The notes beneath the pieces were generated by a model, which had not been told where the DNA came from, searched no databases, and was given only the letters and a program-made list of their open reading frames with translations. Both the position numbers and the translations under genes were made by a program. From Nanobdellota archaeon (lineage in GTDB: Archaea > Nanobdellota > Nanobdellia > Pacearchaeales > GW2011-AR1), in the NCBI GenBank assembly GCA_038044985.1, contig JBBSYY010000012.1:5973-69972 (forward strand): a stretch of DNA of 64,000 bases, in the 5' to 3' direction. Below are positions 9,783-31,118 of the stretch, in pieces; within the stretch, counting starts at the first letter, position 1; each line of letters starts with the position of its first letter.

Positions 9783-9791
9783 TTACTTTCT

Positions 9792-15876: not shown

Positions 15877-15954
15877 TTTTTATCTTGCTTCATTAAAAAA
15901 TGAAGATTAAAAATTTTTAATTTTTTTATTTTTATTACCATAATTTAGCTTCTT

Positions 15955-16200
15955 CTAATTTTTGTTTATATAGTTCATATTTATCGCCAGGATATATAAA
16001 ATCAAAACCTTTATTATATATCTCACACATTTTCCTATTAATAGCATCGATACAATATCTAAAACTCCAATCATCTTAAAATTTAAATCCTTTTTTATAG
16101 TTACTATTTCATTATTAGAAACACTAATTATTAGACTATCTAAAAGAAATATTTTACCCTCTGCTAAATCTTCAAATCTAAAGTTTATTTTTTTAACCAT
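15955..16200 (-). CDS. Operon-embedded orphan ORF O10, apparently frameshifted
   Basis: ATG at 16198-16200, with one base between it and the rpl30 stop codon. Shares the FEDLAEG motif with O5. The distal part reads as odd hydrophobic sequence, whereas the adjacent frame gives DDWSFRYCIDAINRKMCEIYNKGFDFIYPGDKYELYKQKLEEAKLW down to 15935. Confidence 0.5.
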   Translation of the reverse strand: MVKKINFRFEDLAEGKIFLLDSLIISVSNNEIVTIKKDLNFKMIGVLDIVSMLLIGKCVRYIIKVLILYILAINMNYINKN

Positions 16201-16201
16201 C

Positions 16202-16669
16202 TCACAACATCCTCTCAATAAGTTTATTTATATCTTTTCCGTTATTTCCCAATACCCCTTTAGGATAAACCAGTTTACTTTTTATTCCTTTTCTAGGAGG
16301 ATGAAGCCTAAAAAAAGGCTTTAATTCAAAATCAGAAAGTTTTTTTCCTTTGATTAGATTATCAGCAACCTCTTCGACATTAATTTTTATTTTATTTTTA
16401 TCGCCTTCGACAGATTTTGCCCTTTCTTTAATTAATTTAACTAGAATATTCTTATCAATCTCGCCATAAGCGATATAAAACTTTACCTTTTTCAACATTC
16501 CTTCATTATTTTTATTTCTAGTAATTAAGATACAAGCATATTTTCTTCTTAATCTCAATCTATCTAAAGTTCCAGCAATATCTTTTTTTACATCAACCAT
16601 TCCAGAAATTCTAATTACTGCTAATAACTTATTCTCTGAAAGTAATTTTTCTTTTTTTGTATCTGCCAT
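16202..16669 (-). CDS. rpl30: 50S ribosomal protein uL30
   Basis: LAVIRISGMVDVKKDIAGTLDRLRLRRK motif typical of archaeal L30/L7e. Confidence 0.9.
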   Translation of the reverse strand: MADTKKEKLLSENKLLAVIRISGMVDVKKDIAGTLDRLRLRRKYACILITRNKNNEGMLKKVKFYIAYGEIDKNILVKLIKERAKSVEGDKNKIKINVEEVADNLIKGKKLSDFELKPFFRLHPPRKGIKSKLVYPKGVLGNNGKDINKLIERML

Positions 16670-16886
16670 TTTTTTAGTAACGTAAGCCCCTATTTCTTGC
16701 TTGCTGTTGCTATCTTCTAGTTCTTTATTAATTATTTTTTGTTCTCAATTAGATTTTATTTTTTTTATTAATACCTGCTAACTCAACTTGAGAGCTATAG
16801 CTACTCATTACTCTATTATTTTCATTAAGTTTAATATTACTAATATCATCATTCATTTTTTCTATTTTTATTTTTTAGATATGGGA

Positions 16887-17186
16887 TTAAGCTAATTCAA
16901 TGCTTTCATCAGAAAATCCAAGTTTTACCAGAACTTTTTTAACGTTCACTGAATGTTTTCCTTGGAGTTCAATAGCATTTCTTTTAACTGTCCCGCCACA
17001 AGCTAGTTTGTGTTTAAGCTCTTTTGCCAGAGACTTCAAATCAACTCCCTGAAAACCTAAGATGACTGTTATAATTTTCCCAAATTTCTTGATTTCTGTT
17101 TTTATCTGTATTCGCTGTTCTGTTTTTGCAATTTCTTGGCAAACACAAGCTTGCAAAGGCAATCCACATTTAGGACATATACTCAT
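16887..17186 (-). CDS. Translation initiation factor aSUI1 (eIF1 homologue)
   Basis: N-terminal CPKCGLP..CVC zinc knuckle plus a SUI1 domain (KLACGGTVKRNAIELQG). Confidence 0.85.
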   Translation of the reverse strand: MSICPKCGLPLQACVCQEIAKTEQRIQIKTEIKKFGKIITVILGFQGVDLKSLAKELKHKLACGGTVKRNAIELQGKHSVNVKKVLVKLGFSDESIELA

Positions 17187-17414
17187 TTGTTTATTTTTTT
17201 GTTTTTATCCTCAATAGATTTATTTAATAGTTTTAACTTATTTAAAGATTTTTTTGATTTTAAATTTTTGTTGTGTTTCGTTTTGCGCTTTTTATTGAGC
17301 AAAATGAAATGCTCAAAAATCTTTCGATTTTGTTGTGCTTCATTTTACAATTCTAGCTTGCTTAAGGCTTTCAAAACCTTCATAAAATTTATTTTTGTTT
17401 AGTTTTATTTATGT

Positions 17415-17649
17415 CAAGATTCTAGAAAACCACGCACTTTAGTGCGTGGGAATCTTGAGCACCTCAAGAATTCTGACAATTGAATTCTTGATGGTCATCA
17501 GGAATTTTATTCCTGAGACAAGAAAATTTCTTACAAAGGAAATTTTCTGTACAGAAAATTCCAAACAACAAAAGGAATTTTCTTGCATCCAAAAGTCCTA
17601 AACAAACCTCGGCTTTTAAGCCGAGGTAAAACTCAAGGACTTTTTGATT
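17415..17649. other. Array of at least 7 consecutive perfect stem-loops inside the r-protein operon (between rpl29 and SUI1)
   Basis: Stems verified by hand. They are 17415-22/17450-57 (enclosing ccacgcac-ttta-gtgcgtgg), 17453-59/17463-69, 17465-73/17482-90, 17498-505/17509-16, 17521-30/17539-48, 17553-62/17574-83 and 17591-99/17636-44 (enclosing cctcggctt-tt-aagccgagg). Confidence 0.85.
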
Positions 17650-17822
17650 TTATTAAATGTTAGCAATCTTGCAATTGTTTTTTTTAATTCTCTAATTTTT
17701 GTTTTTCCACCTTTAGTCAACTTAACTCTTTCTCTGATTAATTCATTTTTTAATTCTTTAATTTTTTCTTTTATTTCATTTACAGCCATTTTTGAAATAT
17801 CTTTTGATTTTAATATTGCCAT
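17616..17822 (-). CDS. rpl29: 50S ribosomal protein uL29
   Basis: 68 aa with the helical L29 pattern (KELKNELIRERVKLTKGG). The stop codon (17616-17618) lies in the loop of the GC-rich hairpin. Confidence 0.85.
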   Translation of the reverse strand: MAILKSKDISKMAVNEIKEKIKELKNELIRERVKLTKGGKTKIRELKKTIARLLTFNKIKKSLSFTSA

Positions 17823-18006
17823 CTTGTTAAGTTTTGGTTTACTTAAAGATTCAGAAAATTTTTCATGTTAAAATTTTCTGCGCTCAAAAATCTTTTGATT
17901 TTTGTTGTTTTTAAAACCATCTATAAATTTTAGTTTTAGGTAATCAAAGATTTTTAATCTTTTAGTCTTTATCACCATATTTAATAATTTTTATTTAATA
18001 AATTTA

Positions 18007-18786
18007 TCATTCTTTTGATTTTATATCAATAATTTCTTGAGGAGCTTCTTTAATATCTTTTTCCATCGGCTTTTTTATATCCTTATTTTTCACTTTTTCT
18101 TTTTTCTCTTCAGTTTCTTTGATTTTTTCTTCAACTTTTTTTTCGGGTTTTTCTTTTTTTTCCTGAATGCTTTCTTTGATTTTTTCTTTTACCAATTCAT
18201 TAATCTCAATTTTATCATAAATTCTAGCCCATGGGGGCATAATAGCAACTTTCACTCCAATAACTCCGCTTTTTGTTAGTGCTGTTGATTGCGCTCTATC
18301 AACTTCTTTTCTTGAATCTCCAGCTTTCTTTAAATAACCTTCTGAAAATCTCCATGATTTAGCTCTATCACTAGGCAGTTTTCCGCTTAATCTTATTTCA
18401 CAACCTAAAACTCCGGCAGCCATTATTTCTTGCAATTTTTTATAAGCAATTACTTTAAACTTCAAATTACCAGTTCTTTCTAAAGCAAGTGCGATCTCAT
18501 CGGCAACTGTTTGTGCGTCAAACAAAGGATCTTTAATTTCTTTTATTTCAATGTGTGGGTTTTCTAGTTTAAATCTTTTTTTTAAAATTTCTGTTAAATC
18601 TTCAATTTTCCCTCCCCCCCTACCTATAACTAAACCAGGTTTACTAGTAGAAATAATTATTTTCTCTCCGACTGGCGTATACTCAATGTTCAATTTACTA
18701 ATTTTTCCTCTTCCTAGATCCCTTTTAATATATTCTTTAATTCCAAACTCTTCTTTCTTCAGTTTTATAAATTTTTGTTCTTCCAT
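18007..18786 (-). CDS. rps3: 30S ribosomal protein uS3 with a Lys/Glu-rich C-terminal tail
   Basis: KH domain (GLVIGRGGGKIEDL) plus S3 C-terminal domain, then about 60 aa of KE-rich tail. It is in a non-canonical position, after rps5. Confidence 0.9.
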   Translation of the reverse strand: MEEQKFIKLKKEEFGIKEYIKRDLGRGKISKLNIEYTPVGEKIIISTSKPGLVIGRGGGKIEDLTEILKKRFKLENPHIEIKEIKDPLFDAQTVADEIALALERTGNLKFKVIAYKKLQEIMAAGVLGCEIRLSGKLPSDRAKSWRFSEGYLKKAGDSRKEVDRAQSTALTKSGVIGVKVAIMPPWARIYDKIEINELVKEKIKESIQEKKEKPEKKVEEKIKETEEKKEKVKNKDIKKPMEKDIKEAPQEIIDIKSKE

Positions 18787-18788
18787 TT

Positions 18789-19214
18789 TTAATTAGGTTC
18801 CTCCCACATTCCATTTAATTGCAGCATTTTTAACAATTTTGGATATCTTGAGTCAGAAGATTTATATATATTATAACGAACAACTTTCCCAAAATCATTT
18901 AAAAATCCTAACGAGATAACACGATCTTCAAAAATTAGTTTTTCTTTTAAAATTCTATAAGCTATTATTTTATCATCAGCTATTTTAGTCAGAAATTCTT
19001 TAACACCATAGATTTCAGATACTTTATTCTGTAAGATAACCTCATAAAATTCTTTTTTATTTTCTTTAATAATTCCAGAATAAACCATTTGCTTACTTAT
19101 TGTTTCTAAAGTTACTAAACTTTTATGTTCAACTATTACTTTTTTTCCAATTAAATTTTCTAGTTCTTCATGAATTCTAGGTTTTTCATATATAATTGCT
19201 TTTTGCATTTTCAT
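18789..19214 (-). CDS. Operon-embedded orphan ORF O9 (141 aa)
   Basis: Starts at the base immediately after the rps5 stop and ends 2 nt before the rps3 start. I recognise no family. Confidence 0.65.
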   Translation of the reverse strand: MKMQKAIIYEKPRIHEELENLIGKKVIVEHKSLVTLETISKQMVYSGIIKENKKEFYEVILQNKVSEIYGVKEFLTKIADDKIIAYRILKEKLIFEDRVISLGFLNDFGKVVRYNIYKSSDSRYPKLLKMLQLNGMWEEPN

Positions 19215-19940
19215 TTACATCTCCATAGTCTTTTTTAAAGCATTAATACAAGCCTTTGCTAAATTTATAGTTGTTCTTTTCTGCCCATCTGTATAACTAT
19301 AAACATCTTTTATTCCAGATATTCTTAAAATTTTCTTTAGCTCATCTCCAATGACTAATCCTGTACCTTGCGGGGCTGGAATTAATTTAACCTTACAACT
19401 CCCACATTTTCCCTCAACAACAAATGGAACTGTATGCGATTCTCCACAATTACAATCAAAACTACCACAAGCCCTTTTAATTTTAATAAGATTAAGTTTA
19501 GCTTTTCTTAATGCTTTTGCGTTTGCTGGCAAAGTTTCTTTTGCTTTTCCATATCCAATACCAATATAACCATCGCTTCCTACAACAAGTGCACATGAGA
19601 AGGTTGGAACATTTCCTTCAGCAGTTTTTCTTTGAGTTTGTCTCCAAGCTCTTCTTTTTCCACCGCCAAATTTTCCTTTTGCCTGTCCGATATTAAGGAT
19701 TTCTGACTTTAGCCCCAATAATGAATCAACAATTTCTGGCTCTAATATTCTATATTTCAACACTTCATCAATTTCTTTAATTTTTCCTTCTTTCACAAGT
19801 TTGCCAAGTTTTGTTTTTGGATTCCACTCTTCTAATTTTTTAATTTTTTGTTCTATCGCTCTATCTTCTCTGATTTTTTTAAAGTCTCTAGTTTTCCAAG
19901 CTTCATTCATTTTTTTATTTAATCCAATTTGTTTTTTCAT
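19215..19940 (-). CDS. rps5: 30S ribosomal protein uS5
   Basis: S5 dsRBD and C-terminal domain motifs (VVGSDGYIGIGYGKAKE; APQGTGLV). Confidence 0.9.
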   Translation of the reverse strand: MKKQIGLNKKMNEAWKTRDFKKIREDRAIEQKIKKLEEWNPKTKLGKLVKEGKIKEIDEVLKYRILEPEIVDSLLGLKSEILNIGQAKGKFGGGKRRAWRQTQRKTAEGNVPTFSCALVVGSDGYIGIGYGKAKETLPANAKALRKAKLNLIKIKRACGSFDCNCGESHTVPFVVEGKCGSCKVKLIPAPQGTGLVIGDELKKILRISGIKDVYSYTDGQKRTTINLAKACINALKKTMEM

Positions 19941-19942
19941 TG

Positions 19943-20245
19943 TTATTTTAATACTTTATATTTATATTTATATTTATTTAAAAAATCTTTAATTAAATCA
20001 CTGTCTAAAGCAACAGTCCAATACTCTTTCACTGGTTTATTTGGAACCCCTATAACATAATAATTTTTTGTTTCAGATAAATTAGTAACATTAAACTTTT
20101 TAGCTATTTCATGGAAAACATCGATATCACTAACCTGTATCATTCTTTTATGTGGCCAAAATACTAATTTATCTTCATTTGATATTTTATCCTCTAAATA
20201 TTTTCTACATCTTTGTCCAGCTTCAGTTTTATCCATCATTACCAT
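19943..20245 (-). CDS. Operon-embedded orphan ORF O8 (100 aa)
   Basis: 1-nt gap after the rpl18 stop and 2-nt gap before the rps5 start. I recognise no family. Confidence 0.65.
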   Translation of the reverse strand: MVMMDKTEAGQRCRKYLEDKISNEDKLVFWPHKRMIQVSDIDVFHEIAKKFNVTNLSETKNYYVIGVPNKPVKEYWTVALDSDLIKDFLNKYKYKYKVLK

Positions 20246-20246
20246 T

Positions 20247-20726
20247 TTACTTTACCTTTTCAATTTCATTTTTAACTTTATTAAAAAAATCATATCTTTG
20301 AATTTTTTCATTGTCAGGGAAGACTTTTTCGTTACAAGGGATATTTAATCCAGCATCTCTAGCTCCTTTAACTATGGCATAAACTCTTGAACCCTTTGTA
20401 TTTGGAATTAATCCAGAATCTAAAATGGCTTTTTTAATTTTTACTTTTTTTCCTATTAATAATCCAGCTAAATAACTTGCTGATAATGACTTTAAACTTC
20501 CGATTTTCTCTTTGGGCCATCCAAATTTCAGAAGTTCTTTAGTAGTTATCGTTTTTAAAACTTTGTCTTGTGCATGTTCACTTTCAGCAATCTGCAAAAT
20601 TATATACTTATTAGTTTTCCTAACAACTAATCTAGGAGAATTAGATTTAAGCAAAATTAATCTTTTTCTATAATTCGTTTTGCTTTCCCTTCTTCGTCTT
20701 TTATGCAATCTTCTTGGATGTTTCAT
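20247..20726 (-). CDS. rpl18: 50S ribosomal protein uL18
   Basis: RRRRESKTNYRKRL N-terminus and PRLVVRKTNKYI motif. Confidence 0.9.
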   Translation of the reverse strand: MKHPRRLHKRRRRESKTNYRKRLILLKSNSPRLVVRKTNKYIILQIAESEHAQDKVLKTITTKELLKFGWPKEKIGSLKSLSASYLAGLLIGKKVKIKKAILDSGLIPNTKGSRVYAIVKGARDAGLNIPCNEKVFPDNEKIQRYDFFNKVKNEIEKVK

Positions 20727-20731
20727 TTTAT

Positions 20732-21238
20732 CTACTGCTTGCTTCCTCTTAATTTTTTACTAACTTTCTCTTTAGTCTTTTTTTCAAATTCTTTTTCAGT
20801 TTGATATATTGGTTTAACAAAATTATCTGCTATAATTCCAATGCCATTTAAATATTCTCTAAAATTAGACTTGCTTTTAAACTCTTTCATTTTTATTTTT
20901 TTTCTTAATCTGATATATAACTCTTTATTGACAACCCCAACATTTTTTAATTCAATTAAATATTTCCTTAATTTCCTAGTTATCTTTACATATTCTTTTT
21001 TTCTATCTTTAATCTTCATTTTAATTTTTCCAGCCCCTCTTTTAGTTTTTCTTCTTCTTACCTTTTTTCTTCCTTTAACTGGTTTAATTGTTATTATCTC
21101 TTCTTGATATAATGTTTTAATGTCTTGTCTTGTAATAGCTTCTTTTATCTCAGCCAAATTTGCTTGATTAAAGACGATTCTATTTTTTCCAACACCCAAA
21201 ACCCTTGCAGCAAGCATCTTTTTCTTATTGAGGTTCAT
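20732..21238 (-). CDS. rpl19e: 50S ribosomal protein eL19
   Basis: KKMLAARVLGVGKNRI start and a basic central region typical of L19e. Confidence 0.9.
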   Translation of the reverse strand: MNLNKKKMLAARVLGVGKNRIVFNQANLAEIKEAITRQDIKTLYQEEIITIKPVKGRKKVRRRKTKRGAGKIKMKIKDRKKEYVKITRKLRKYLIELKNVGVVNKELYIRLRKKIKMKEFKSKSNFREYLNGIGIIADNFVKPIYQTEKEFEKKTKEKVSKKLRGSKQ

Positions 21239-21518
21239 TTTTATCTTTTGATAAGTTTATTTCTTGAATTATTTTGGCGCTTGCTACCATTTTTTCTAAG
21301 TTAGTTTTACATAAATTAATTGATCTATCAATTCTTATTTTTTCTTCATTTGATAATGTTTTTTTTCTTTTATCTAATAACTGATTGCATTCTCTATATG
21401 TATCTTCATAAAGTAGCTGATTAATTCTTAAAGCTTCTTCATAATTATCTCTACGAACTGCTTCAAAGAGTTTTTTATAAGTTTGCTCAATTTCTTCTTT
21501 ATTCATAGTATTATTCAT
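21225..21518 (-). CDS. Operon-embedded orphan ORF O7 (97 aa, helical)
   Basis: Overlaps the rpl32e end by 8 nt (or starts at the internal Met at 21506) and the rpl19e start by 14 nt. I recognise no family. Confidence 0.6.
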   Translation of the reverse strand: MNNTMNKEEIEQTYKKLFEAVRRDNYEEALRINQLLYEDTYRECNQLLDKRKKTLSNEEKIRIDRSINLCKTNLEKMVASAKIIQEINLSKDKNEPQ

Positions 21519-22095
21519 TTTTTTCCTCCATCTCTTCCTTTTTAATTTCCTGTTTATTTAAATTTGATTCAGTTTTCTCTTCAATTTTCTCCTCTAGTTT
21601 TTGATCAGTTTTTTCTTTTAGTTCTTCTTCTTTCTTTTCTTCAACTATTTTTTCCTTAACTACCATTTTCTTTTCTTTTTCAATTTTTTCTTCTTTTGTT
21701 TTTTTCTTTTTTTTCTCTAGTCCGGCCAAAAATTTTTTTGGATTAAGATTTAATAAATAAACTTTATTATGCAATGCGTATTCAGAAATCTCTTTCTTTT
21801 TCTTGTCTCCTATATTAGCTATTATCCCGATGTTATTTTCTCTAATTTTTTTTAAATCCTTAATATTATAAATCATAAATGGAAATTTTTTTTGACCATT
21901 TTTTTTTATTAATCCTCTTTCTTCCTTACTGCTTTTAAACCCAACCTTGACTTTTCTAAGTTTTCCCTTCATATTTAATCTAATTTTATTGTCTCTGCCT
22001 CTGGGTTTTCTATAGACTACTTTTTTCTTTCTTCTTAATCCTAGTTTTGAGTATTTATGAGAATCAACTACTCTAAATATTGTCTTTTTTGACAT
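21511..22095 (-). CDS. rpl32e: 50S ribosomal protein eL32 with a Lys/Glu-rich C-terminal extension
   Basis: L32e core (YRKPRGRDNKIR...) followed by an about 70-aa KE-rich tail. It starts directly after the rpl6 stop. Confidence 0.88.
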   Translation of the reverse strand: MSKKTIFRVVDSHKYSKLGLRRKKKVVYRKPRGRDNKIRLNMKGKLRKVKVGFKSSKEERGLIKKNGQKKFPFMIYNIKDLKKIRENNIGIIANIGDKKKKEISEYALHNKVYLLNLNPKKFLAGLEKKKKKTKEEKIEKEKKMVVKEKIVEEKKEEELKEKTDQKLEEKIEEKTESNLNKQEIKKEEMEEKNE

Positions 22096-22833
22096 TTACA
22101 AATAAACCCTCCCAGGTTTTTCAATTATGAAAATTCCGTCTTGATATATTCTCCTATCTTTATTTCTTATTTTAGTTCCTTTTTCAATATTAGTTGCTAT
22201 CTGCCCGGCTTTTTCAATATCAAAACTTTTTAATTCTACAATGTCCTTATCTATCTTAATTTCAACCTCAGGAACCGATTTTATTATTCTATCTTTATTT
22301 TCCCCTAAAAAGTTTTTAACAATAATTTCATTATTTTCTTTGTTGTAGATGACATTCATTGGAAAATGAACATTTGCGATCTGTAGTTTGTAGATAAATC
22401 CCTTTATTAGTCCATTAATCATATTTTTAATATGGGCTGAAAATGTTCCAAAAAGCCTTTTTTCAATTCTTCTATCTCTTTCAGAACTTATAATTATCTT
22501 ATTTACTTCTATTTTAAAATTAATTAAATCGTTTAGCTTTCTTTTCAATTCTTTATCATTTTTCCTGATAATTAAAAAATTTTCTCTGATCTCAACAGAA
22601 ATTTCTTTTGGTATTTCAATTTCTTCATATAATTTTTTCTGATTATCTTTTTTTCTAACTTTACTAATCTTAACCGATTTCCTTTGAGAGCTAGAACCAC
22701 CATCGCTTTCATTTGATTTGATATTATCGATAGTTTTTTTATCTAATCTTTCTTTATTTTGGTAGCTATTCTGGTTTATTTCAGCTTTACTAACTTTTCT
22801 TTGTTTTAAACTACTAATATTTTCTTCGGCCAT
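22096..22833 (-). CDS. rpl6: 50S ribosomal protein uL6 with an about 65-aa N-terminal extension
   Basis: Duplicated L6 alpha/beta domain motifs (FGTFSAHIKNMINGL; VHFPMNV). The start lies 1 nt after the rps8 stop. Confidence 0.88.
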   Translation of the reverse strand: MAEENISSLKQRKVSKAEINQNSYQNKERLDKKTIDNIKSNESDGGSSSQRKSVKISKVRKKDNQKKLYEEIEIPKEISVEIRENFLIIRKNDKELKRKLNDLINFKIEVNKIIISSERDRRIEKRLFGTFSAHIKNMINGLIKGFIYKLQIANVHFPMNVIYNKENNEIIVKNFLGENKDRIIKSVPEVEIKIDKDIVELKSFDIEKAGQIATNIEKGTKIRNKDRRIYQDGIFIIEKPGRVYL

Positions 22834-22834
22834 T

Positions 22835-23206
22835 TCAATACATATATGCTATTAAACATCCTCCTAAATTTTGTTCTTCGGCTTCAATATGTTTAACTAT
22901 CCCCTTATTTGTGGAAACTATAATAAAACCAAAATTTTTTGCTGGCAAAAATCTTCTTACATAAAATTTTATTTTTTTAACAGAAACTGTATATCTTGGT
23001 TTAATTACTTTAATCATATTTAAGTCTATTATTCTAACCTTTAACTCACTATCTTGAATTTTATAATCTAAATATCCAGATTCTTTTGCAATATCTAATA
23101 TACTTCTAAGTAATTTTGAATGCTTTTTTATATTTATTTCTGTTTTTTTTGCTCTTTTAGCATTCATTATTTCATTCAATCCATCAGCTACAATGTCTTG
23201 ACCCAT
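22835..23206 (-). CDS. rps8: 30S ribosomal protein uS8
   Basis: DIVADGLNEIMNA start and a GGCLIAYMY-type C-terminus. Confidence 0.9.
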   Translation of the reverse strand: MGQDIVADGLNEIMNAKRAKKTEINIKKHSKLLRSILDIAKESGYLDYKIQDSELKVRIIDLNMIKVIKPRYTVSVKKIKFYVRRFLPAKNFGFIIVSTNKGIVKHIEAEEQNLGGCLIAYMY

Positions 23207-23207
23207 T

Positions 23208-23438
23208 TTAAGAATATTTTTTAAAGCCTAATTCTTCAGCAATTTCTCTAAAGCAGTGCCTGCATAAATTTAATCCGTAAGAATTGATCATCGCGCCAAA
23301 TCTTCCACATCTTTCACATTTTTTCCTAGCTATCCCAGCACCTCTTTCTTTTGGTTTATTATGTTTTAAATACTTAGCTCTAATTGCAGGCTTTCCAGCA
23401 AGCTGTTTCAACATCTTTCTCCAATCACTTGCGGTCAT
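23208..23438 (-). CDS. rps14: 30S ribosomal protein uS14 (zinc type) with an N-terminal extension
   Basis: CERCGR...CRHCFRE zinc-ribbon S14 core. Confidence 0.85.
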
Positions 23439-23755: not shown

Positions 23756-24393
23756 ACAATCTCCACCCCAAAATTTTTACTTAAAAAACTTACAATTTCT
23801 TCTTGACTAACCAATTGTTTTTTTGGCAATTTTCCACGCTTAATTTTTTTAAATTTAACCCTTTTCCCTCTTCTTTTAAAAACAATTCTTACTTCAAAGC
23901 CCAAAATACCAATATCTCTTTCATAATCTAATCCAGGCACTTCAATATATTCTTTAATACCAAAACAAAATTGATTTTCAGTTATTTGCTGTCTTTTTAT
24001 TGTATTGTCGAAGGCAGAAAAAAACCTTTTTAATAGTCCATATATTTTATCTTTATCGCGAATTGTAACCTTACACCCACTCTGTTTTCCAGGGCTAATC
24101 CCAAATTCAGGCACTCTTTTTGTAGATTTTTTGATATAAACTTTTTTGTTGGTTATTTTTTTCAATAATTTTACAGATTTTTCTAGTTTATCGTCTATCC
24201 CTCCGCAATGTAGGACTAATTTTTCTATCTCAACATCTCTCATTTTATTTTGCATTTTATTTTCATTTCTTGGTTTTGATAATTTCTTACTATCAGTAGT
24301 TTGAACTTCTGTTGCTTTTTTAGCTAATTCTTTTACCATAATATTTTGTTTATTATCAACATCCAAAATTTTCTGATTCTGTATTAGTTCCAT
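23752..24393 (-). CDS. rpl5: 50S ribosomal protein uL5 (possible N-terminal extension; alternative start near MRDVEIEK)
   Basis: L5 core motifs (LVLHCGG; GFEVRIVFKRRG). Confidence 0.88.
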   Translation of the reverse strand: MELIQNQKILDVDNKQNIMVKELAKKATEVQTTDSKKLSKPRNENKMQNKMRDVEIEKLVLHCGGIDDKLEKSVKLLKKITNKKVYIKKSTKRVPEFGISPGKQSGCKVTIRDKDKIYGLLKRFFSAFDNTIKRQQITENQFCFGIKEYIEVPGLDYERDIGILGFEVRIVFKRRGKRVKFKKIKRGKLPKKQLVSQEEIVSFLSKNFGVEIV

Positions 24394-24437
24394 TTTAAAA
24401 TTTCAGTTTTGTTATAACTTTTTTAAAAAGCTTCATC

Positions 24438-25085
24438 TTAAATTTCCTCCATCGCAATTATATTTTTAACCCAAACATTTATCTTTTTGCCAATGTTAAT
24501 TTTTGCAAGTTTTTTACCGCCTCTTTCAATAATATCCTCAATTTTTCCTTTTTGACCTATATGCTTGCCTCTTATAATGAACCCTATTTTCCCAACTTCC
24601 ATTTTAATTACCTTTTCAATATTTCTATTATTAAAATTAAAAACGACAGAGTCTCCAACATTCGCTTTTTCTTTATAAATAACATTTCTTCCATCAATTA
24701 AGTTTAGCTGAATTTTATTTCCTTTAATTATTTTTTTTCCAGTAATTTTTATAGTCTTTTTATCAAAATTGTCAGAAATATTATCGAGCATGATTTTTTT
24801 ATGTTTAGACAAACCAACCCTATAATTTTTATCATTTAATAAAAGAACATCAAATAATCTAAGGGGATAATTTGTTTCTGTAATAACTTTTCCATTAATT
24901 TTAATTTTTTTTTCTTTTAGTAAATTTTTTAATTCTTTTTTAGTCCTAACTAGTCCTAAAACATCTCTTACTACTATTATCAATGGGATAGAATTTTTTT
25001 GGTCGTGCGTACTTACAGCCAAATACTTTGTTCCTTTCCTTGGAACTGGCCAAAATTTTCCAATATTTTGTCTTTTAAGATGCAT
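24438..25085 (-). CDS. rps4e: 30S ribosomal protein eS4
   Basis: MHLKRQNIGKFWPVPRKGTKY start followed by S4 and KOW domains. Confidence 0.9.
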   Translation of the reverse strand: MHLKRQNIGKFWPVPRKGTKYLAVSTHDQKNSIPLIIVVRDVLGLVRTKKELKNLLKEKKIKINGKVITETNYPLRLFDVLLLNDKNYRVGLSKHKKIMLDNISDNFDKKTIKITGKKIIKGNKIQLNLIDGRNVIYKEKANVGDSVVFNFNNRNIEKVIKMEVGKIGFIIRGKHIGQKGKIEDIIERGGKKLAKINIGKKINVWVKNIIAMEEI

Positions 25086-25326
25086 ATTTTTTCTCCTGTT
25101 TTAATCTATCTAAAACTTTTTTCTCTAGAGCAAAAATTTTGATATCATCATCTTCTATTAAGTATCTTTGACCTTCTGCTAAATCTTCATACCTACTATA
25201 AAAATAACTGTCCTTGGATAATGGTATTTCATGATACTGATAAAACCCTTCTACAGATCCATAACTCTTTCTAATCTTTTTAGCAATAAATTTTAATGCT
25301 GTTTTTCTTAATTTTTTTATTAACAT
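25075..25326 (-). CDS. Operon-embedded orphan ORF O5 (83 aa)
   Basis: 9-nt gap after rpl24 and 11-nt overlap with the rps4e start. Carries a YEDLAEGQRYLIED motif shared with O10. Confidence 0.6.
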   Translation of the reverse strand: MLIKKLRKTALKFIAKKIRKSYGSVEGFYQYHEIPLSKDSYFYSRYEDLAEGQRYLIEDDDIKIFALEKKVLDRLKQEKKYAS

Positions 25327-25335
25327 TTTCTTACC

Positions 25336-25743
25336 TTATTTACTAATTGTTTTATCTCCTCCAGCTTTTCTTTCAAGGGACTCTTTTCTTTTTTTATCTT
25401 CTAAATTTAGTTCTTTAATTTGTAATTTTGATGGATCAAATTTAACTGCAATTTTTGTTCCATCTTTTTTGGTTCTATAAATTCCATCAATCGTTACTTT
25501 TAATTTTTTTAAATTAACTATATTCACTTTTCCTATTTTATCTTTAAACTCTCCCGCCAATACTTTAACTAAATCGTCCTTAACTACCGAAAAATTCCTC
25601 TTCCCATATTTTTTTCTCAGTTCTTTGCTTAAATTAACACTCATCATTTTTCTTCTAATATGCAAACTAGCATTATACCTATACTTTCTCTGCTTTCTAG
25701 GTTGTTTGCTTGCCTTCCAATGTTTTGAAAATTTTTTTTTCAT
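25336..25743 (-). CDS. rpl24: 50S ribosomal protein uL24
   Basis: KOW motif region (VVKDDLVKVLAGEFKDKIGKV) and a basic N-terminus. Confidence 0.9.
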   Translation of the reverse strand: MKKKFSKHWKASKQPRKQRKYRYNASLHIRRKMMSVNLSKELRKKYGKRNFSVVKDDLVKVLAGEFKDKIGKVNIVNLKKLKVTIDGIYRTKKDGTKIAVKFDPSKLQIKELNLEDKKRKESLERKAGGDKTISK

Positions 25744-25744
25744 C

Positions 25745-26119
25745 TTAAAAAGATTCCAACATTTTTACAGATTTAACAAGAAATTCTTTATATCTTTCTT
25801 TAGCTAAATCAAATAAAGATTGATAATAATCAGGAATTCCATTTTTTAAAAAAGAGGAGTTAAAATAAATAGAAGCAATTCTATCCAAACTTAATATGCC
25901 GTCAGCAAGGCTTTTTCCAACACGTTCAATGTCTCCTTGTTGAGCAAAAGCAGCTGATTCTATTGATGTAAAATTTATGAGACATAATTCTTCTAAATAA
26001 CTTCCCAGTCTTTTACTTATAAATTTCTGTTTAACTATATTGTTTATTCTGTTAGAATAATCTCTAAGATTATTTAATTCTCTTGTCATTAAATTATTAA
26101 TTTCATTATTCATTTTCAT
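25745..26119 (-). CDS. Operon-embedded orphan ORF O4 (124 aa, helical)
   Basis: 4-nt overlap with O3 and 1-nt gap before rpl24. A GAGGAAAG Shine-Dalgarno-like motif lies upstream of the ATG. Confidence 0.65.
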   Translation of the reverse strand: MKMNNEINNLMTRELNNLRDYSNRINNIVKQKFISKRLGSYLEELCLINFTSIESAAFAQQGDIERVGKSLADGILSLDRIASIYFNSSFLKNGIPDYYQSLFDLAKERYKEFLVKSVKMLESF

Positions 26120-26421
26120 GTTTTTCTTTCCTCAAAAATATTATCGCATTTATTTCTCAATTCAACATATTTTTCTGCATAAAGCCTTGGATTAAAAGAT
26201 AATCCCATTAAACCAGAACAATAATTCTTAAAAGCTTCATCGGTTTCTTCTACTTCCCAATAAGAAACTTTTCCTCTTCGTTCACTAAGATTTTGATCAT
26301 ATCCATCATCAACAACTATTGATGGGCTAACTATAGTTACTTCTTCATCATTGATATACACATCTAATGTTTTTATGCAAGATTCTATTTCTCTTATTAA
26401 TATTTTTTTTACGTCTTTCAT
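26116..26421 (-). CDS. Operon-embedded orphan ORF O3 (101 aa, acidic)
   Basis: 1-nt gap after the rpl14 stop and 4-nt overlap with the O4 start. Confidence 0.65.
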   Translation of the reverse strand: MKDVKKILIREIESCIKTLDVYINDEEVTIVSPSIVVDDGYDQNLSERRGKVSYWEVEETDEAFKNYCSGLMGLSFNPRLYAEKYVELRNKCDNIFEERKT

Positions 26422-26422
26422 T

Positions 26423-26824
26423 TTACATCACAAATTTAGCAATTTTACTTACAAATGGGTATCTGTCTGCGGCTTCTTTAGCAATTGGTCCTTTAATCTG
26501 CGTACCTTTTGTATTTCCTTTTTCGTCTTTTAATAAAACAACGGCATTGTTTGTAAAAGCAACTCTTTCTCCAGTTTTTCTTCTATATGACTTTTTCTGC
26601 CTTATTACAACTGCATCAAAAACCTCTCCAATCATTTCATGATTTCCTTTTCTTACAGATACTTTAACCCAATCACCAACTTTAGCATACTGCTGTCTAC
26701 CTCTTCTTGTTTTTCCACCTTTAACGCTAACTATTCTTACAACAGTTGCTCCACTGTTATCACTAGCTAAAACTAAACTTCCTAAATTCAATCCTCTAGT
26801 TATTTTTGCTGCAACGCCTTTCAT
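26423..26824 (-). CDS. rpl14: 50S ribosomal protein uL14
   Basis: L14 core runs from MKGVAAKITRGLNLGS onward. I chose the internal Met at 26824 because the longer ORF-track start (26887) would overlap rps17 by 53 nt. An AAGGAG motif lies upstream. Confidence 0.88.
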   Translation of the reverse strand: MKGVAAKITRGLNLGSLVLASDNSGATVVRIVSVKGGKTRRGRQQYAKVGDWVKVSVRKGNHEMIGEVFDAVVIRQKKSYRRKTGERVAFTNNAVVLLKDEKGNTKGTQIKGPIAKEAADRYPFVSKIAKFVM

Positions 26825-26834
26825 TTTAAAATTT

Positions 26835-27179
26835 TCATTCTCCTTTTTCCTTAGTTTTACTTTCTTTACCAACCTTTCTGACAACAATAAAATGAATTAT
26901 CTTGCTAATAGGCCTGCATTCTTTAATTTCAATATAATCTCCAATACTGATTTCTTTTGACATGCAATCAGGAAGTCTTGCATGAAGTTTTGTTTTCCTT
27001 TTAGCATATCTTTCATATTTTCTAACAAAAATTGTCCTTTCAAATTCAATTACAACCCTTTTTGGAAATTTCTTTCTTACAGTTCCATAAAAACTTCTAC
27101 CTCTAAGACTTATACTGCCATGTTTTGGACATGCAAAATCATTGCATTCCTTTTCCGTTATGTTTTTTTGTTCTGCCAT
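26835..27179 (-). CDS. rps17: 30S ribosomal protein uS17
   Basis: CPKHGSISLRGR...VVIEFER...IGDYIEIKECRPISK OB-fold S17 pattern. Confidence 0.9.
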   Translation of the reverse strand: MAEQKNITEKECNDFACPKHGSISLRGRSFYGTVRKKFPKRVVIEFERTIFVRKYERYAKRKTKLHARLPDCMSKEISIGDYIEIKECRPISKIIHFIVVRKVGKESKTKEKGE

Positions 27180-27186
27180 TTTAATT

Positions 27187-27441
27187 CTATATTCCTTTTA
27201 AATAATTTGGTAACCATTTATCAACTAATTCTTGATAGAGTTTTATTTTAACCTCAATATCATTATCATTTCTTACTCTAACAAAATCTTTTAATTCTAA
27301 TAGTCCTGCTCCAATATTGATCACTGCATCTTTTTTCCCAAGACTATAACTATTATCCCAAAAAAAATTGAAATCTTCTAAATATTTGTTTAACCCAATC
27401 AATAATGCATTTTTCCTTATTTCATAATTTTCAAATTTCAT
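27187..27441 (-). CDS. Operon-embedded orphan ORF O2 (84 aa)
   Basis: 8-nt gap after rpl22 and 7-nt gap before rps17. It occupies the slot where rps3-rpl29 normally sit. Confidence 0.6.
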   Translation of the reverse strand: MKFENYEIRKNALLIGLNKYLEDFNFFWDNSYSLGKKDAVINIGAGLLELKDFVRVRNDNDIEVKIKLYQELVDKWLPNYLKGI

Positions 27442-27449
27442 TTTAATTT

Positions 27450-28043
27450 TTATCTCAGATTAGGAACTAATTTAATTAAAACATGACTTCTCTTAAATCT
27501 CCCTTGCCCAAATCTTTTCTGTGGTTTAGAAGCAATATTAGCCATGCAAAAAATTTTAAATTTTTCTAATTCTAGCTCATTATAAATTGCATTTGCTCTT
27601 AAACTTTTTAATAATTTTAAAAATTCATTAACAGCATTTATAGGATATCTCCCTCTTCCAGAAGCGATACTAATTCCTTTTTTATGCGGTATTTCTCCTT
27701 TCATTGGAATGGCAATTTCTATTTTTTTGACTTTTTCAAGATTTCTAATAGACTGATCAATTTCTTTATTTCTGATAAAATTACAAACAGCAACAGCCTG
27801 TTTTGTAGAAATCCTCAAATCCTCTCCTTTAACAACAGCTTCTGTTTTTTTTATTCTTTTAATTTCTGCTTTAGGTTCTCTTTTTTCTTTAGTTTTTTCT
27901 TTTTTAATATCTAACTTATCGCCTTTATTATATTGAACCTCTGTTGCTTGCTTGGCGTTACTATAACTACTATTGCTAATTTTTTCTTCTTTAAAACTTT
28001 CTTTTATATTTCCTTTAATTTTATTATCTAATTTTTCATCCAT
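27450..28043 (-). CDS. rpl22: 50S ribosomal protein uL22 with an about 60-aa N-terminal extension
   Basis: L22 core (ISTKQAVAVCNFIR...GRGRYP...). The start lies 1 nt after the rps19 stop. Confidence 0.88.
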   Translation of the reverse strand: MDEKLDNKIKGNIKESFKEEKISNSSYSNAKQATEVQYNKGDKLDIKKEKTKEKREPKAEIKRIKKTEAVVKGEDLRISTKQAVAVCNFIRNKEIDQSIRNLEKVKKIEIAIPMKGEIPHKKGISIASGRGRYPINAVNEFLKLLKSLRANAIYNELELEKFKIFCMANIASKPQKRFGQGRFKRSHVLIKLVPNLR

Positions 28044-28044
28044 T

Positions 28045-28455
28045 TTATTTTACAGACTTAGATGCACTAGATCTTGTAGCGCCGATTCCAGCTGCGCCAT
28101 GTTTAACTTTAGATCGAGTAACTGAAAATTCTCCTAACCTATGACCCAACATTTCTTTTTCAATCTGAATAGGAACAAATGTCTTGCCATTATGAATATG
28201 TATTTTCATGCCTATCAATTGCGGAACAATAATAAGACTTCTTAAATGAGTCCTTATAAGTTTTTTATTCTCAATTTTTTTATCGCATCTTATAACAAAT
28301 TTCTGTATCTTGTCATATTGCCTTAATATAGTTCTTTTTTCGTTGCTTTTCAATAATTTTGCAAATTCTCTAATGTCCATTTTTTTTAATTCCTCTAGAG
28401 TGTTGCCTCTATATGTGAATTCCTTTTTCTTTATTTCAAATGTTTGATCTGTCAT
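28045..28455 (-). CDS. rps19: 30S ribosomal protein uS19
   Basis: HNGKTFVPIQI...GHRLGEFSVTR motif. Confidence 0.9.
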   Translation of the reverse strand: MTDQTFEIKKKEFTYRGNTLEELKKMDIREFAKLLKSNEKRTILRQYDKIQKFVIRCDKKIENKKLIRTHLRSLIIVPQLIGMKIHIHNGKTFVPIQIEKEMLGHRLGEFSVTRSKVKHGAAGIGATRSSASKSVK

Positions 28456-28598
28456 TTTTTATTTTTATTTTGTGTTTATTTGTTTACTTGATTAATAATC
28501 ATAAACCTATTAAGCGAGAACTTCTGTTCCAGCTTATCTAACTTATTATTAATCTTCATTATACGTTTTTTGTTTAATTTTTTATTTTTAAAATATTA

Positions 28599-29468
28599 TC
28601 ATACTAAAATTCCTTTCCCCCTGCCAGTCTTCCTAGGCCTTATATGGCCAACTTTTGCTCCTGGAGGAGCATTTCTTTTTGCTATTTTGCTTTTGATTCT
28701 TTTTCCTCTACCACTTCCAAAAGGATGGTCTACAATATTCATTTTTACTGCAGAGGTTCTATGCCATTTTCTTCCTACAGATTTCATTTTATAATATTTC
28801 TTGCCTGCTTTAACAAACGGTTTTATTATTCTGCCATCTCCTCCAACAACACCTATAATTGCTCTACAATTTTCATGCAGTTTTATCTTTCTTCTTTTAA
28901 CTTGTATTTCAACTTTATCATCTTTTGTTGTTATAATTCCAAAACTTCCAGAACTCCTAAAATACTTACCGCCATTTCCAGGAACAGCCTCAACATTAAA
29001 GACCGTCGTACCTTGCTTAATGTCTTTTAGTTTTAAAATATCCCCAGTTTCAGAAATTCTGCTTTCGGGCCTTTTTCCAATATAAATTTCTTTTCCCTCA
29101 TAAATACCATCAACAGCAGGCACGAAAAATCTTATTTTTTTATTTTTGTCTTTTTGTATATTAACATCTAATGAAGTTTGATCGCTCTTACTAACTTGCT
29201 GTTTATTTTTATTCTCAAGTTCTTTTTTAAAGCTAATAATATTTCTAACTTTTTCTTCTTTAGGATTAATACTACTTATATTACTGCTAACAACCTCAAT
29301 TTCAGCAAGAGGAGCTGTATGCCCAAGAGAATTAATTAACCTAATAACCTTACCGATACCTTCTATGTTTAGACTAGGGTAACTTATTTTATATATATAA
29401 GCTCTTGGTCTAACTCTATACGTTAAACTTCCTTTTCCTCTTGCTTGCGAATATATTCTTTTTCCCAT
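28599..29468 (-). CDS. rpl2: 50S ribosomal protein uL2 with an about 50-aa internal insertion
   Basis: L2 motifs (GHTAPLAEI; VDHPFGSGRG; PPGAKVGHI). A Lys/Asn/Ser-rich insert (ISSINPKEEK...QKDKNKK) lies between the N-terminal OB and SH3-like domains. Confidence 0.9.
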   Translation of the reverse strand: MGKRIYSQARGKGSLTYRVRPRAYIYKISYPSLNIEGIGKVIRLINSLGHTAPLAEIEVVSSNISSINPKEEKVRNIISFKKELENKNKQQVSKSDQTSLDVNIQKDKNKKIRFFVPAVDGIYEGKEIYIGKRPESRISETGDILKLKDIKQGTTVFNVEAVPGNGGKYFRSSGSFGIITTKDDKVEIQVKRRKIKLHENCRAIIGVVGGDGRIIKPFVKAGKKYYKMKSVGRKWHRTSAVKMNIVDHPFGSGRGKRIKSKIAKRNAPPGAKVGHIRPRKTGRGKGILV

Positions 29469-29469
29469 T

Positions 29470-29709
29470 TTATATCATTCCTAGTTTAGTAACAACATCA
29501 ATTGCAGGATCTCTTGCATTTAATTTAGCATAAACATACTTTTCATTTTTTCTTATTAAGCTATTAATTTTATCTACCTTAACATTAAACATATTCTCAA
29601 TTTCCTTTTTAATTTCATCTTTGGAATTTCTCATATCTGTCTTAAAAACCAAAGTATTATTAAGTTCGATTAGCCTAACTGCTTTTTCAGACATAACTAG
29701 TTTGAGCAT
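29470..29709 (-). CDS. rpl23: 50S ribosomal protein uL23
   Basis: L23 pattern (LVFKTDMRNSKDEIKKEIENMFNVKV). A GGGAGG Shine-Dalgarno-like motif lies upstream of the ATG. Confidence 0.88.
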   Translation of the reverse strand: MLKLVMSEKAVRLIELNNTLVFKTDMRNSKDEIKKEIENMFNVKVDKINSLIRKNEKYVYAKLNARDPAIDVVTKLGMI

Positions 29710-29853
29710 TTTTCCTCCCTGTTTATAGGCTTTTTATTTATTTTATTAGTAATCCTATAAAGATTAAGAATGCTAGAAACTCTATTGTTATTTCTTTCTC
29801 CAATATTACCTAAGTTTATTAATATTTTAATTATCATTTTAAGTTTTGGTTTT

Positions 29854-30672
29854 TTATTTCTCCTTACTATTTTCTTTAAAAAAATCTTCAAGTTCTTTAA
29901 TCGCATTTTCGCTAAACATAGTTAATCTTGCTCCGTTTTCGGCTAGATCATTCACACTTAATTTTTTAACTTTAATAGTTTCAATTCCTCTAATTTTCTT
30001 ATTTTCATCATTGCTTACGATAAACAATAATCCTGCATTTTTTTTATATTTCCTGCCCCTCATTTTTCCAATCCCGGCTCTCACCGTCTTTTTTTGTATA
30101 GCTATTCCATATAATTCGCCTAAAATTTTTTTTAAACTTTCCAATAATTCTTTTGTTTTTAGCTGAAAAATTTTATTTTCAACAACCAAAGGCAGCTTAT
30201 TATTAATTTTATTAAGATTGTTTAAAGAATCATATTTTTTCTTTAGCTCTTCAAAATTAGAAATATAACTTAATGCTGATAATAATGCTTTTTTTAGTTC
30301 TTTTTTATTTATTTTTTTTATTTTATAAAGCCCTCTTGGAGGGTGGGCTCTTCTACCCCCTCTTGCGAAAGGTACTATTGCTCCTTGCCATGAAAATTGA
30401 GTTCCTCTTCTCCAAAAAGCTTTTTTTGGTATTCTTGCAAGCCCTCTTCCTCTGTCAGATTTCCACGAATGTCTTTTATGTCTAACATTTCCACTTGCAG
30501 ATCTATCCATTCCAGCATAAAGCTTTGTAGAATAAGGGTGTTCTGCTCTATTATTCATCTTTTCAGCTTCAACAACTTTAAAAATAATATCTTCTCTTAT
30601 TGGTTCTTCGAATAATTCTGTCTCTATTTCTCTTATCTTTTCTCCATTAATATTTAAAATTGGGATTTTCAT
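29854..30672 (-). CDS. rpl4: 50S ribosomal protein uL4
   Basis: GRGLARIPK...GGRRAHPP motifs; AGGAG upstream of the ATG. Confidence 0.9.
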   Translation of the reverse strand: MKIPILNINGEKIREIETELFEEPIREDIIFKVVEAEKMNNRAEHPYSTKLYAGMDRSASGNVRHKRHSWKSDRGRGLARIPKKAFWRRGTQFSWQGAIVPFARGGRRAHPPRGLYKIKKINKKELKKALLSALSYISNFEELKKKYDSLNNLNKINNKLPLVVENKIFQLKTKELLESLKKILGELYGIAIQKKTVRAGIGKMRGRKYKKNAGLLFIVSNDENKKIRGIETIKVKKLSVNDLAENGARLTMFSENAIKELEDFFKENSKEK

Positions 30673-31118
30673 TTATATTTCTCCTGATCTTTTGCTAGTT
30701 CTGTTTCTAATCTATCTACATAGGCTTCCCCTCTTTCTAAAAATCTAGCCCAATCCACCTCGGCCATCAAATCTAATCCAGAAAAAGTATTTTCTAGATC
30801 ATGAAGAATAATCTCTGTTTTTATTTGATAATTTTCTAAAACCTTTCTATTTTCTTCTTCAGAAGGACTTACAACAACTAATGCTGTATTATTTTTTAAT
30901 TCTGAGCGATAATGATGACATAAAATAGCCTCTGTTAATAGAAACTTATCTGAATTATGATTAACATAACGATAAGGAGGTTCATTATCAAAAACCTTAG
31001 GCTTAGGCATCTTTCTAAAATTTCCATTTCTACTGATAATCTCTGCAAATCTATGCGATTCTTCTAAAGATCCTACTCCAAATAAAAACTTAGCTCTTAA
31101 TCTCTGTTCCATTTTCAT
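30669..31118 (-). CDS. Operon-embedded orphan ORF O1 (149 aa, net acidic)
   Basis: ATGA overlaps at both ends, verified by hand (rpl3 stop 31115-17 with O1 ATG 31116-18; O1 stop 30669-71 with rpl4 ATG 30670-72). I recognise no family. Confidence 0.7.
   Translation of the reverse strand: MKMEQRLRAKFLFGVGSLEESHRFAEIISRNGNFRKMPKPKVFDNEPPYRYVNHNSDKFLLTEAILCHHYRSELKNNTALVVVSPSEEENRKVLENYQIKTEIILHDLENTFSGLDLMAEVDWARFLERGEAYVDRLETELAKDQEKYK

Follow-up and report, generated by a model that had tools for sequence, protein, structure and literature searches.

Small-protein genes of a heterogeneous, lineage-specific pool embedded in the ribosomal protein gene cluster of a Nanobdellota archaeon

The S10–spc cluster of ribosomal protein (r-protein) genes is, to our knowledge, the most conserved gene arrangement in prokaryotes, and the usual markers in the phylogenomics of metagenome-assembled genomes (MAGs) are r-proteins encoded together on a single scaffold. 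Work on Methanococcus operons in the late 1980s reportedly revealed open reading frames (ORFs) in this cluster that were unidentified at the time and were later recognized as S4e, L32e, L19e, aSUI1 and RNase P Rpp29. The stretch analysed here (the window) comprises 64,000 nucleotides of a Nanobdellota archaeon (GenBank assembly GCA_038044985.1, contig JBBSYY010000012.1, positions 5,973 to 69,972), with a GC content of about 27%, and carries ten small ORFs, O1 to O10, wedged between the r-protein genes of this cluster (Table 1). Like the archaeal S10/spc ORFs, they are extra same-strand genes among universal r-protein genes, unassignable when first seen and, in the present case, probably co-transcribed with their neighbours. 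However, the former are found Archaea-wide at fixed positions and encode core components of translation or RNase P, whereas the present ORFs are confined to one clade of DPANN archaea, differ from strain to strain, move among junctions and gave no match to any r-protein family.

Other systems resemble the arrangement in part. Phage morons and hyperplastic regions are also small, diverse, fast-turnover genes placed between conserved and highly expressed genes, with contents that vary among close relatives. Nevertheless, morons classically have their own promoter and terminator and belong to mobile genomes, whereas the present ORFs occupy a cellular r-protein operon that, judging from its junction lengths, has no room for such signals, and they gave no PHROG match, nor did the O8 model match BFVD. 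Free-standing homing endonuclease genes of T-even phages and organelles share the patchy distribution and the position between conserved genes usable as recombination arms, but the present ORFs comprise dozens of unrelated families with no nuclease domain or motif and with no co-converted flanks in the one case tested. Chaperones of the Acl4, Yar1, Sqt1 and Syo1 type keep a fixed partnership with a single r-protein, while the families of O4, O8, O6 and O9 are found at two to four junctions.

The general kind of arrangement, accessory genes embedded in a conserved operon, is already known. Unusual here are the dozens of families, the novel folds, the residence restricted to the cluster and the relocation between junctions. 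The ten ORFs come from a large pool of small-protein families, heterogeneous and specific to this lineage, whose sampled members all lie inside the r-protein cluster. No description of the arrangement was found in the full-text literature, including a survey of archaeal r-protein cluster organization and two extensive studies on gene families of unknown function, and it appears to be undescribed so far.

The limits of the host supercluster, from L3 to SecY, were set by Pfam matches and by synteny with relatives. The initial annotation had counted 22 r-protein genes plus aSUI1 and secY, and this count was upheld. Pfam confirmed 20 neighbours of the ORFs (L3, L4, L23, L2, S19, L22, S17, L14, L24, S4e, L5, S14, S8, L6, L32e, L19e, L18, S5, S3 and L30), and L29, SUI1, L15 and SecY were assigned via homologues with Pfam-labelled products. 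No gene for RNase P Rpp29 was found within the cluster. All ten ORFs are present on the minus strand at the coordinates first given, and in the NCBI Nanoarchaeota MAG they are annotated as hypothetical protein AABW90_00730...00885. The source contig was recovered repeatedly in independent assemblies of 0.1-µm-filtered Hainich groundwater samples (ENA ERZ1292627 and others), and mis-assembly is therefore excluded. Its closest relatives in genome collections are labelled Woesearchaeota or Nanoarchaeota, and the label Pacearchaeota is attached to one family member. Small ORFs without a Pfam match number about 10 in 16.7 kb within the cluster versus about 4 in 47 kb outside it, where nearly all genes of the window have Pfam matches, and no paralogue of the orphan families was found elsewhere in the window.

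Chance alone is an improbable source of these frames, as had been argued from the AT-rich composition. With a stop frequency of about 0.10 per codon, the per-frame probabilities range from 1e-7 to 9e-5, and the observed ORF lengths were reached in 0–3 of 20,000 shuffles. The GC content by codon position follows the order GC1>GC2>GC3, as in r-protein genes, with O10 atypical. The products are less rich in lysine and arginine than r-proteins (K+R of 0.14–0.23 versus 0.19–0.32), as first noted; O1 and O3 are net acidic (pI 6.0 and 4.7), and the products of O1, O2, O3 and O6 are acidic or near-neutral. Hydrophobic segments are absent from all ten products except for the out-of-frame tail of O10.

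Intact orthologues of O3, O4, O6, O7 and O8 are present in two related contigs of the Hainich type, L005 and L003, with r-protein identities of 90% and 83%, respectively. The ratio of nonsynonymous to synonymous substitution rates (dN/dS, Nei–Gojobori) is 0.23–0.76 for the orphans compared with 0.05–0.27 for twelve flanking r-protein genes, a comparison in which dS is partly saturated. These values point to coding sequences under relaxed purifying selection. Nine of the ORFs are intact, real genes for small soluble proteins, and O10 is frameshifted. The initial view of the ORFs as genuine, unassignable and embedded in the operon in an unusual arrangement therefore stands.

The junctions are operon-like for the most part. 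Four-nucleotide overlaps join L3/O1, O1/L4, O3/O4 and O6/S14, and longer ones are found at O5/S4e (11 nt), L32e/O7 (8 nt) and O7/L19e (14 nt). The other orphan junctions measure 0–10 nt, many with the sequence TAAaATG, so that the range from −14 to +10 nt covers all but O10 to L15, which are separated by 78 nt. Furthermore, the ATGA overlap first described at the 5´ end of O6 did not hold, since this gene starts either at GTG 23755, with a GTGA overlap, or at ATG 23752, the choice of the gene callers, with a 1-nt TGATG overlap. Shine–Dalgarno (SD)-like 4-mers precede five of the ten orphans and nine of 24 neighbours, against a background of 18%, and are thus as frequent before the orphans as before r-protein genes.

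All ten ORFs were searched exhaustively with phmmer against 1.84 billion representatives clustered at 50% identity. About 35 representatives were found for O8, about 16 for O4 (at least 16 at this level), seven for O6, four for O7, three more distant ones for O3, one partial match for O10 and one borderline match (P0088) for O1. No relative beyond their own clusters was found in this library for O2, O5 and O9. None of the ten ORFs gave a credible match in Pfam or NCBIfam (both scanned at E up to 1), PHROGs or PADLOC, and in Pfam and NCBIfam they fell into no family of known r-proteins or of known residents of the cluster (aSUI1, Rpp29, adenylate kinase and others). Profile searches against PDB sequences were also empty. 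The structures of two of the ten proteins, O8 and O6, were modelled with AlphaFold. The O8 model, from a 36-sequence alignment, reached a pLDDT of 83.9 and a pTM of 0.75, with no Foldseek match in the PDB (best E 0.86) or BFVD (0.08), all with TM <0.45. The O6 model, from nine sequences, reached a pLDDT of 85.8 and a pTM of 0.80 and shows a beta sheet with two helices; Foldseek gave no PDB fold match (best E 0.38, TM <0.45). Neither model resembles a component of the solved ribosomes in the PDB.

To place the ORFs in a wider context, 97 gap ORFs, that is, same-strand ORFs between mapped r-protein genes, were collected in 13 loci of Pace-/Woesearchaeota-type DPANN archaea. The surveyed loci share 52–90% r-protein identity with the window, and at least nine samples, taken in different projects, are represented among them. 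Their gap ORFs number 10 in the window, about 14 in L005, about 22 in L003, about 10 in L018, 13 in L014, 10 in L022, six in L020 and five each in L012 and L016. The fully compact L004 has none, and none were found in the covered parts of L007, L009 and L010. Grouping by phmmer (E of 1e-4 or below) yielded 60 sequence clusters, 16 with several members and 44 singletons. Nearly every junction from L3/L4 through L15/SecY is occupied in some locus, eight of the 16 clusters with several members are spread over two or more junctions, and L3/L4 hosts three families without detectable mutual similarity. Gene content varies even among strains with 83–90% identical r-proteins.

The genomic context was looked up for ten remote homologues of O1, O4, O6, O7 and O8 from other wells and other studies, in lineages with the canonical and with the displaced order of S3. 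All ten lie between r-protein genes, often at another junction. The families persist in the cluster over deep divergence (to 25–40% identity); over short times they undergo duplication, relocation, replacement, decay and loss.

The explanation that we prefer, with slightly less than even confidence, is a dynamic pool of small accessory proteins that reside in the operon, are co-expressed and have a function tied to the translation apparatus. As nine of the ten ORFs have junctions of −14 to +10 nt, with no room for a promoter or terminator, they would share the transcript of the r-protein operon, with translation starting at SD-like motifs inside the upstream gene or by termination–reinitiation at ATGA or TAAaATG. 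Two studies of archaea report experimental evidence that overlaps of −4 and −1 mediate such coupling, and that overlapping gene pairs often encode subunits of complexes (PMC6728339, PMC10666635). The ATGA, TGATG and 0–2-nt spacers at most orphan boundaries resemble the coupled pairs described there, although those represent a mechanism and not a gene family, and coupling at the present locus is predicted from the junctions. The proteins would then be made alongside r-proteins in roughly similar amounts and could act as dispensable accessory factors whose targets, to be bound or modulated, would be ribosomes, subunits in assembly or free r-proteins. The main argument for a translation-linked role is that the O8 and O4 families have long been restricted to one operon although they move within it.

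The idea of lineage-specific ribosome-associated subunits, put forward at first, survives in this weaker form of dispensable accessory factors. Core ribosomal subunits are excluded because presence is patchy even among close strains, with contents that differ at 83–90% identity and with compact relatives; fixed-neighbour chaperones are likewise unlikely. A bolder version, which we consider doubtful, is a variable accessory ribosome proteome across the DPANN clade: dozens of small proteins with novel folds, encoded only in the r-protein operon, made in step with r-proteins, binding ribosomes or assembling subunits and swapped between strains. It is possible that such a proteome tunes or protects translation in episymbiotic life, including against ribosome-targeting toxins.

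Several observations weigh against a translation-linked role. No RNA-binding or ribosome-related fold was found by Foldseek with the O8 and O6 models or by profiles against PDB sequences, and the link to the ribosome is drawn from gene position; expression and translational coupling are predicted from sequence. The charges of the products are mixed, several being acidic. The absence of gap ORFs from L004 and from the covered parts of L007 and L010 implies that the proteins are dispensable. Moreover, dN/dS values of up to 0.76 and the singletons (O5 and many others) would fit weakly selected passengers equally well. Residence in the cluster may also be partly a sampling effect: its exclusivity is provisional because every family was discovered in a cluster and the survey covers mostly short metagenomic contigs and no complete genomes.

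Such passengers are the basis of the alternative that comes close behind the preferred explanation because of heterogeneity, turnover and relaxed constraint, although we regard it as somewhat unlikely. It holds that the ORFs are promoter-less hitchhikers, accessory or selfish genes with ribosome-unrelated functions that amassed in the longest, strongest, always-on operon of a tiny genome, where junctions offer free expression and turnover is neutral or due to strain-level niche or conflict selection. The extreme heterogeneity of the 60 clusters with their 44 singletons, the strain-variable content, the decaying O10 and the unrelated families at one junction (three at L3/L4) all agree with it, as do the enzyme-like or repeat-domain inserts of relatives (RNase_T in L022, Lactamase_B/Apyc1-like in L018, HEAT_2 in L003 and L005). 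However, the O8 and O4 families stayed in the cluster across 52–70% r-protein identity, and none of the ten context look-ups placed a homologue elsewhere. In addition, no mobility machinery was found, no repeat family flanks the ORFs, their starts and stops carry no information content beyond the codons, no integrase or transposase lies in or beside the cluster, and a test for transfer via homologous flanks at L18/S5 (L018 vs L020) gave no signal. No nuclease domain (LAGLIDADG, GIY-YIG, HNH, PD-(D/E)xK or EDxHD) was found among the ten by Pfam, NCBIfam and PHROGs, and the O8 and O6 folds are unlike PDB nucleases. The single small selfish gene family once proposed thus gives way to ten unrelated ORFs and about 60 clusters, while the associated idea of a colonized operon stays a live rival. 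A further, improbable alternative would make the ORFs conflict genes: immunity, anti-toxin or anti-defence proteins that, for example, shield the ribosome from host, competitor or viral toxins and whose place in the operon would match their production to that of the ribosome. Small size, diversity, fast evolution and variation between strains are the usual signature of arms-race genes, and this role would explain the fast, gene-specific jumps in divergence seen for O6 in L005 and for O7 and O8 in L003, at odds with their flanks. For instance, the O6 of the window shares 76% identity with that of L003 and 40% with that of L005, though L5 and S14 are closer to L005. In addition, O3 and O4 (pI 8.7) form an overlapping acidic/basic pair. 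However, relatives of O4 are found without O3, an autoregulated promoter would have no space, no toxin, antitoxin or defence family was matched by the ten ORFs in PADLOC (0 matches), PHROGs or Pfam, and the O8 fold matches no viral protein model in BFVD.

Dedicated chaperones or assembly factors for the adjacent r-protein, another of the initial proposals, would account for the tightly coupled junctions and for the constant position, in a small sample, of O1 (L3/L4), O2 (L22/S17), O3 (L14/L24) and O10 (L30/L15). The better-sampled families, however, change neighbours: O4 is found at four junctions, O8 at three, O9 at three (S5/S3, L23/L2 and S3/L29) and O6 at two (L5/S14 and L2/S19). As unrelated families also share a junction and members are absent in close relatives, this proposal is very unlikely as a whole and largely refuted for O4, O6, O8 and O9. 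Finally, the ORFs could be artefacts, either spurious frames in expanded intergenic DNA or products of a chimeric assembly, as the frameshift in O10, the lack of a homologue for O5 and the truly non-coding gaps of 429, 217 and 184 nt around L29 and SUI1 might suggest. This is scarcely credible given the very low chance probabilities, the conserved ORFs with dN/dS below 1, the confidently predicted folds of O8 and O6, the identical contigs from independent assemblies and the same architecture in 13 loci from at least nine samples, and it is already refuted for at least eight of the ten ORFs.

Whatever the function, one large archaeal clade tolerates, and apparently long retains, up to about 22 extra small genes in its r-protein cluster, from families seen nowhere else in the sampled contexts. 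The survey adds about 60 new small-protein clusters, at least two of them with confident predicted folds unmatched in solved structures, and the locus offers a natural experiment in gene recruitment into, and movement within, an essential operon with translational coupling unbroken. If ribosome binding is true, strain-variable ribosome accessory proteins exist in otherwise minimal genomes; if the ORFs are hitchhikers, cells have an equivalent of phage morons, and it takes advantage of their strongest operon.

Table 1. Features of the window and of related loci; coordinates of the latter refer to the locus named.
Feature	Coordinates	Strand	Length	Position	Remarks
Host r-protein supercluster	13972..32083	(-)		L3 to SecY	22 r-protein genes, SUI1, SecY
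O1	30669..31118	(-)	149 aa	L3/L4	no family match
O2	27187..27441	(-)	84 aa	L22/S17	53%-identical orthologue at same junction in L018
O3	26116..26421	(-)	101 aa	after L14	
O4	25745..26119	(-)	124 aa	before L24	
O5	25075..25326	(-)	83 aa	L24/S4e	
O6	23435..23755	(-)	105/106 aa	L5/S14	ATGA overlap with S14
O7	21225..21518	(-)	97 aa	L32e/L19e	
O8	19943..20245	(-)	100 aa	L18/S5	alpha/beta; largest family
O9	18789..19214	(-)	141 aa	S5/S3	
O10	15935..16200	(-)	81 aa as annotated	L30/L15	frameshifted; annotated ORF 15955-16200, ancestral C-terminus in other frame to 15935
S3-L29-SUI1 block	16887..18786	(-)		after S5	displaced
L29/SUI1 gap	17187..17615	(-)	429 nt	L29/SUI1	without long ORF
14-mer copies	17311..17324, 17882..17895	(-)	14 nt	non-coding gaps flanking L29	one copy in each gap
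Micro-ORF	28476..28559	(-)	27 codons	L2/S19	
L4/L23 ORF	29697..29906	(-)	69 codons	L4/L23	spans 144-nt spacer, overlaps L4 3´ end
Fusion protein	49636..51846	(-)	736 aa	outside cluster	
L022, RNase_T-type exonuclease	2122-2766		214 aa	L4/L23	
L018, Lactamase_B/anti-Pycsar Apyc1-like protein	14613-15203		196 aa	L15/SecY	
L003, HEAT-repeat protein	8488-8877			after O4	
L005, HEAT-repeat protein	6784-7173			after O4	
L008, GXGXG-repeat protein	78-425			before S19	
L024 (Hainich H43), putative rearrangement	7377-9984			L3 to L2	

The ten ORFs differ widely in how well their families are represented. The lone distant homologue of O1, P0088 (28% identity; E 1e-3 in the full library and 2e-12 in the local set), has the same place, flanked by L3 and L4 with overlaps of 4 nt, in a contig from another sample. 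O3 has orthologues in L003 and L005 that are 79% identical (dN/dS 0.23–0.31), and a weak hhalign link (53% probability) connects it to the S5/S3 gap ORFs of these two loci. The O4 orthologues are 72–77% identical (dN/dS 0.43–0.76), and the family alignment suggests an all-helical protein. Relatives of O4 lie at L14/L24, L6/L32e (L014), S3/L29 (L016) and L18/S5 (L018 and L020); O3 and O4 are adjacent in the window, L003 and L005, while the O4 relatives of L014, L016, L018 and L020 occur without an O3 relative. O5 is the least supported intact ORF: its case consists of ORF statistics and context, and it shares with O10 a short EDLAEG segment (27 of 32 nt).

The O6 family has nine members with a conserved C-terminal motif, one of them at L2/S19 in L022, and dN/dS for its orthologues in L003 and L005 is 0.42–0.63. 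O7, whose composition suggests a helical protein, has orthologues with 66% and 44% identity (dN/dS 0.40–0.51), a paralogue at L4/L23 in L003 and a member in L018 at the same junction as in the window. Members of the O8 family lie at L18/S5, L22/S17 and L2/S19. Probable distant relatives of O9 are found in L014 at L23/L2 (27% identity over 136 aa) and S3/L29, with a common N-terminal ELENLVGK and a common C-terminal Y..LK.L.LN.GMW. The homologue of O10, P0043 (89 aa), aligns with frame 1 of the window for its residues 1–46 and with frame 3 for residues 38–89, ending in ...YELYKQKLEEAKLW. As the alignment switches frame, the window copy of O10 is frameshifted near position 16070 (or contains a sequencing error), and its hydrophobic 3´ half is not ancestral. 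Intact homologues of O10 are found at L30/L15 in L005, and the copy of L018 shows a change close to its end as well.

A Pfam scan of 23 gap ORFs of relatives, 36 members of the O8 family and 17 of the O4 family returned just HEAT_2 and GXGXG, both in relatives; neither family gave a PDB sequence match. More specific assignments were tried and rejected. O8 as a minimal nucleotidyltransferase was considered on account of weak Foldseek matches to the NTase fold, but these have TM <0.45 and the D-x-D motif is not conserved in 36 sequences. O6 gave no Foldseek match of the MazF/CcdB-like toxin kind, and the O4 alignment lacks the R-x4-6-H motif of HEPN proteins. The ORFs at L3/L4 and L24/S4e (149 and 83 aa in the window, 148 and 83 aa in L014 and L020) were examined as diverged orthologues; with hhalign probabilities below 1%, they appear to be unrelated or beyond detection.

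A single superfamily for the ten orphans was also rejected, as all-against-all BLAST and hhalign show no general kinship. The O6, O9 and O10 families and several gap ORFs of relatives nevertheless share a C-terminal motif, Y-x-[KR]-L-[LMI]-x-x-[GA], which occurs in 14 of 61 gap ORFs versus four of 604 background ORFs when a regular expression written post hoc is used. With leave-one-out hidden Markov models, the left-out members ranked first or second among 665 ORFs in six of eight groups, although E values were weak (1e-4 to 0.3). The common motif is therefore just a weak lead towards kinship of these families.

The order of the host cluster itself varies. The S3-L29-SUI1 block follows S5 instead of L22, an arrangement also found in L003–L005, L012, L014, L018 and L020, whereas L016, L022, L023 and L024 keep the canonical L22-S3-L29 order. 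In L024, L3 is followed by a reverse-strand gene of 123 aa and then by L2, and neither L4 nor L23 was called in between, a sign that the cluster may have been rearranged once more in this lineage.

The remaining gaps of the cluster hold features of their own. The first 200 nt of the L29/SUI1 gap form a row of five stable hairpins, with a minimum free energy (MFE) of −68.8 compared with −39.5±4.0 for shuffled sequences (z about −7). The fifth hairpin, CCCACGCAC...GTGCGTGG, is followed by TTTTCT and has a terminator-like look, and the row gave no Rfam match. The gap may split the cluster into separate transcription units, or it may be a new RNA or the remnant of a lost insert. The 14-mer AAAGATTTTTGAGC flanks L29 on both sides; two or more matches to it arose in just four of 100 shuffles, and the stretch around it also matches L003 near 14525-14582.

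The micro-ORF MKINNKLDKLEQKFSLNRFMIINQVNK at L2/S19 has a conserved equivalent of 46 codons between the same two genes of L005 (...KINNKLEKLEQIFSFNRFTITNQV...); it may represent an eleventh gene of the cluster, of very small size, or else a conserved RNA element. The ORF at L4/L23 is 47% identical (E 7e-5) to one of 66 codons that L003 carries between these genes; the ORF found there in L005 has 61 codons.

Outside the cluster, the window encodes chiefly glycosylation enzymes, with EMC3/YidC-like, VanZ and prefoldin genes after SecY. One protein of 736 aa combines a pyruvate-kinase barrel, a PUA-like domain and an ATP-sulfurylase in one fusion. Next to it are encoded a sulfotransferase and several glycosyltransferases, a neighbourhood suggestive of a capacity of this small genome for making sulfated glycans.

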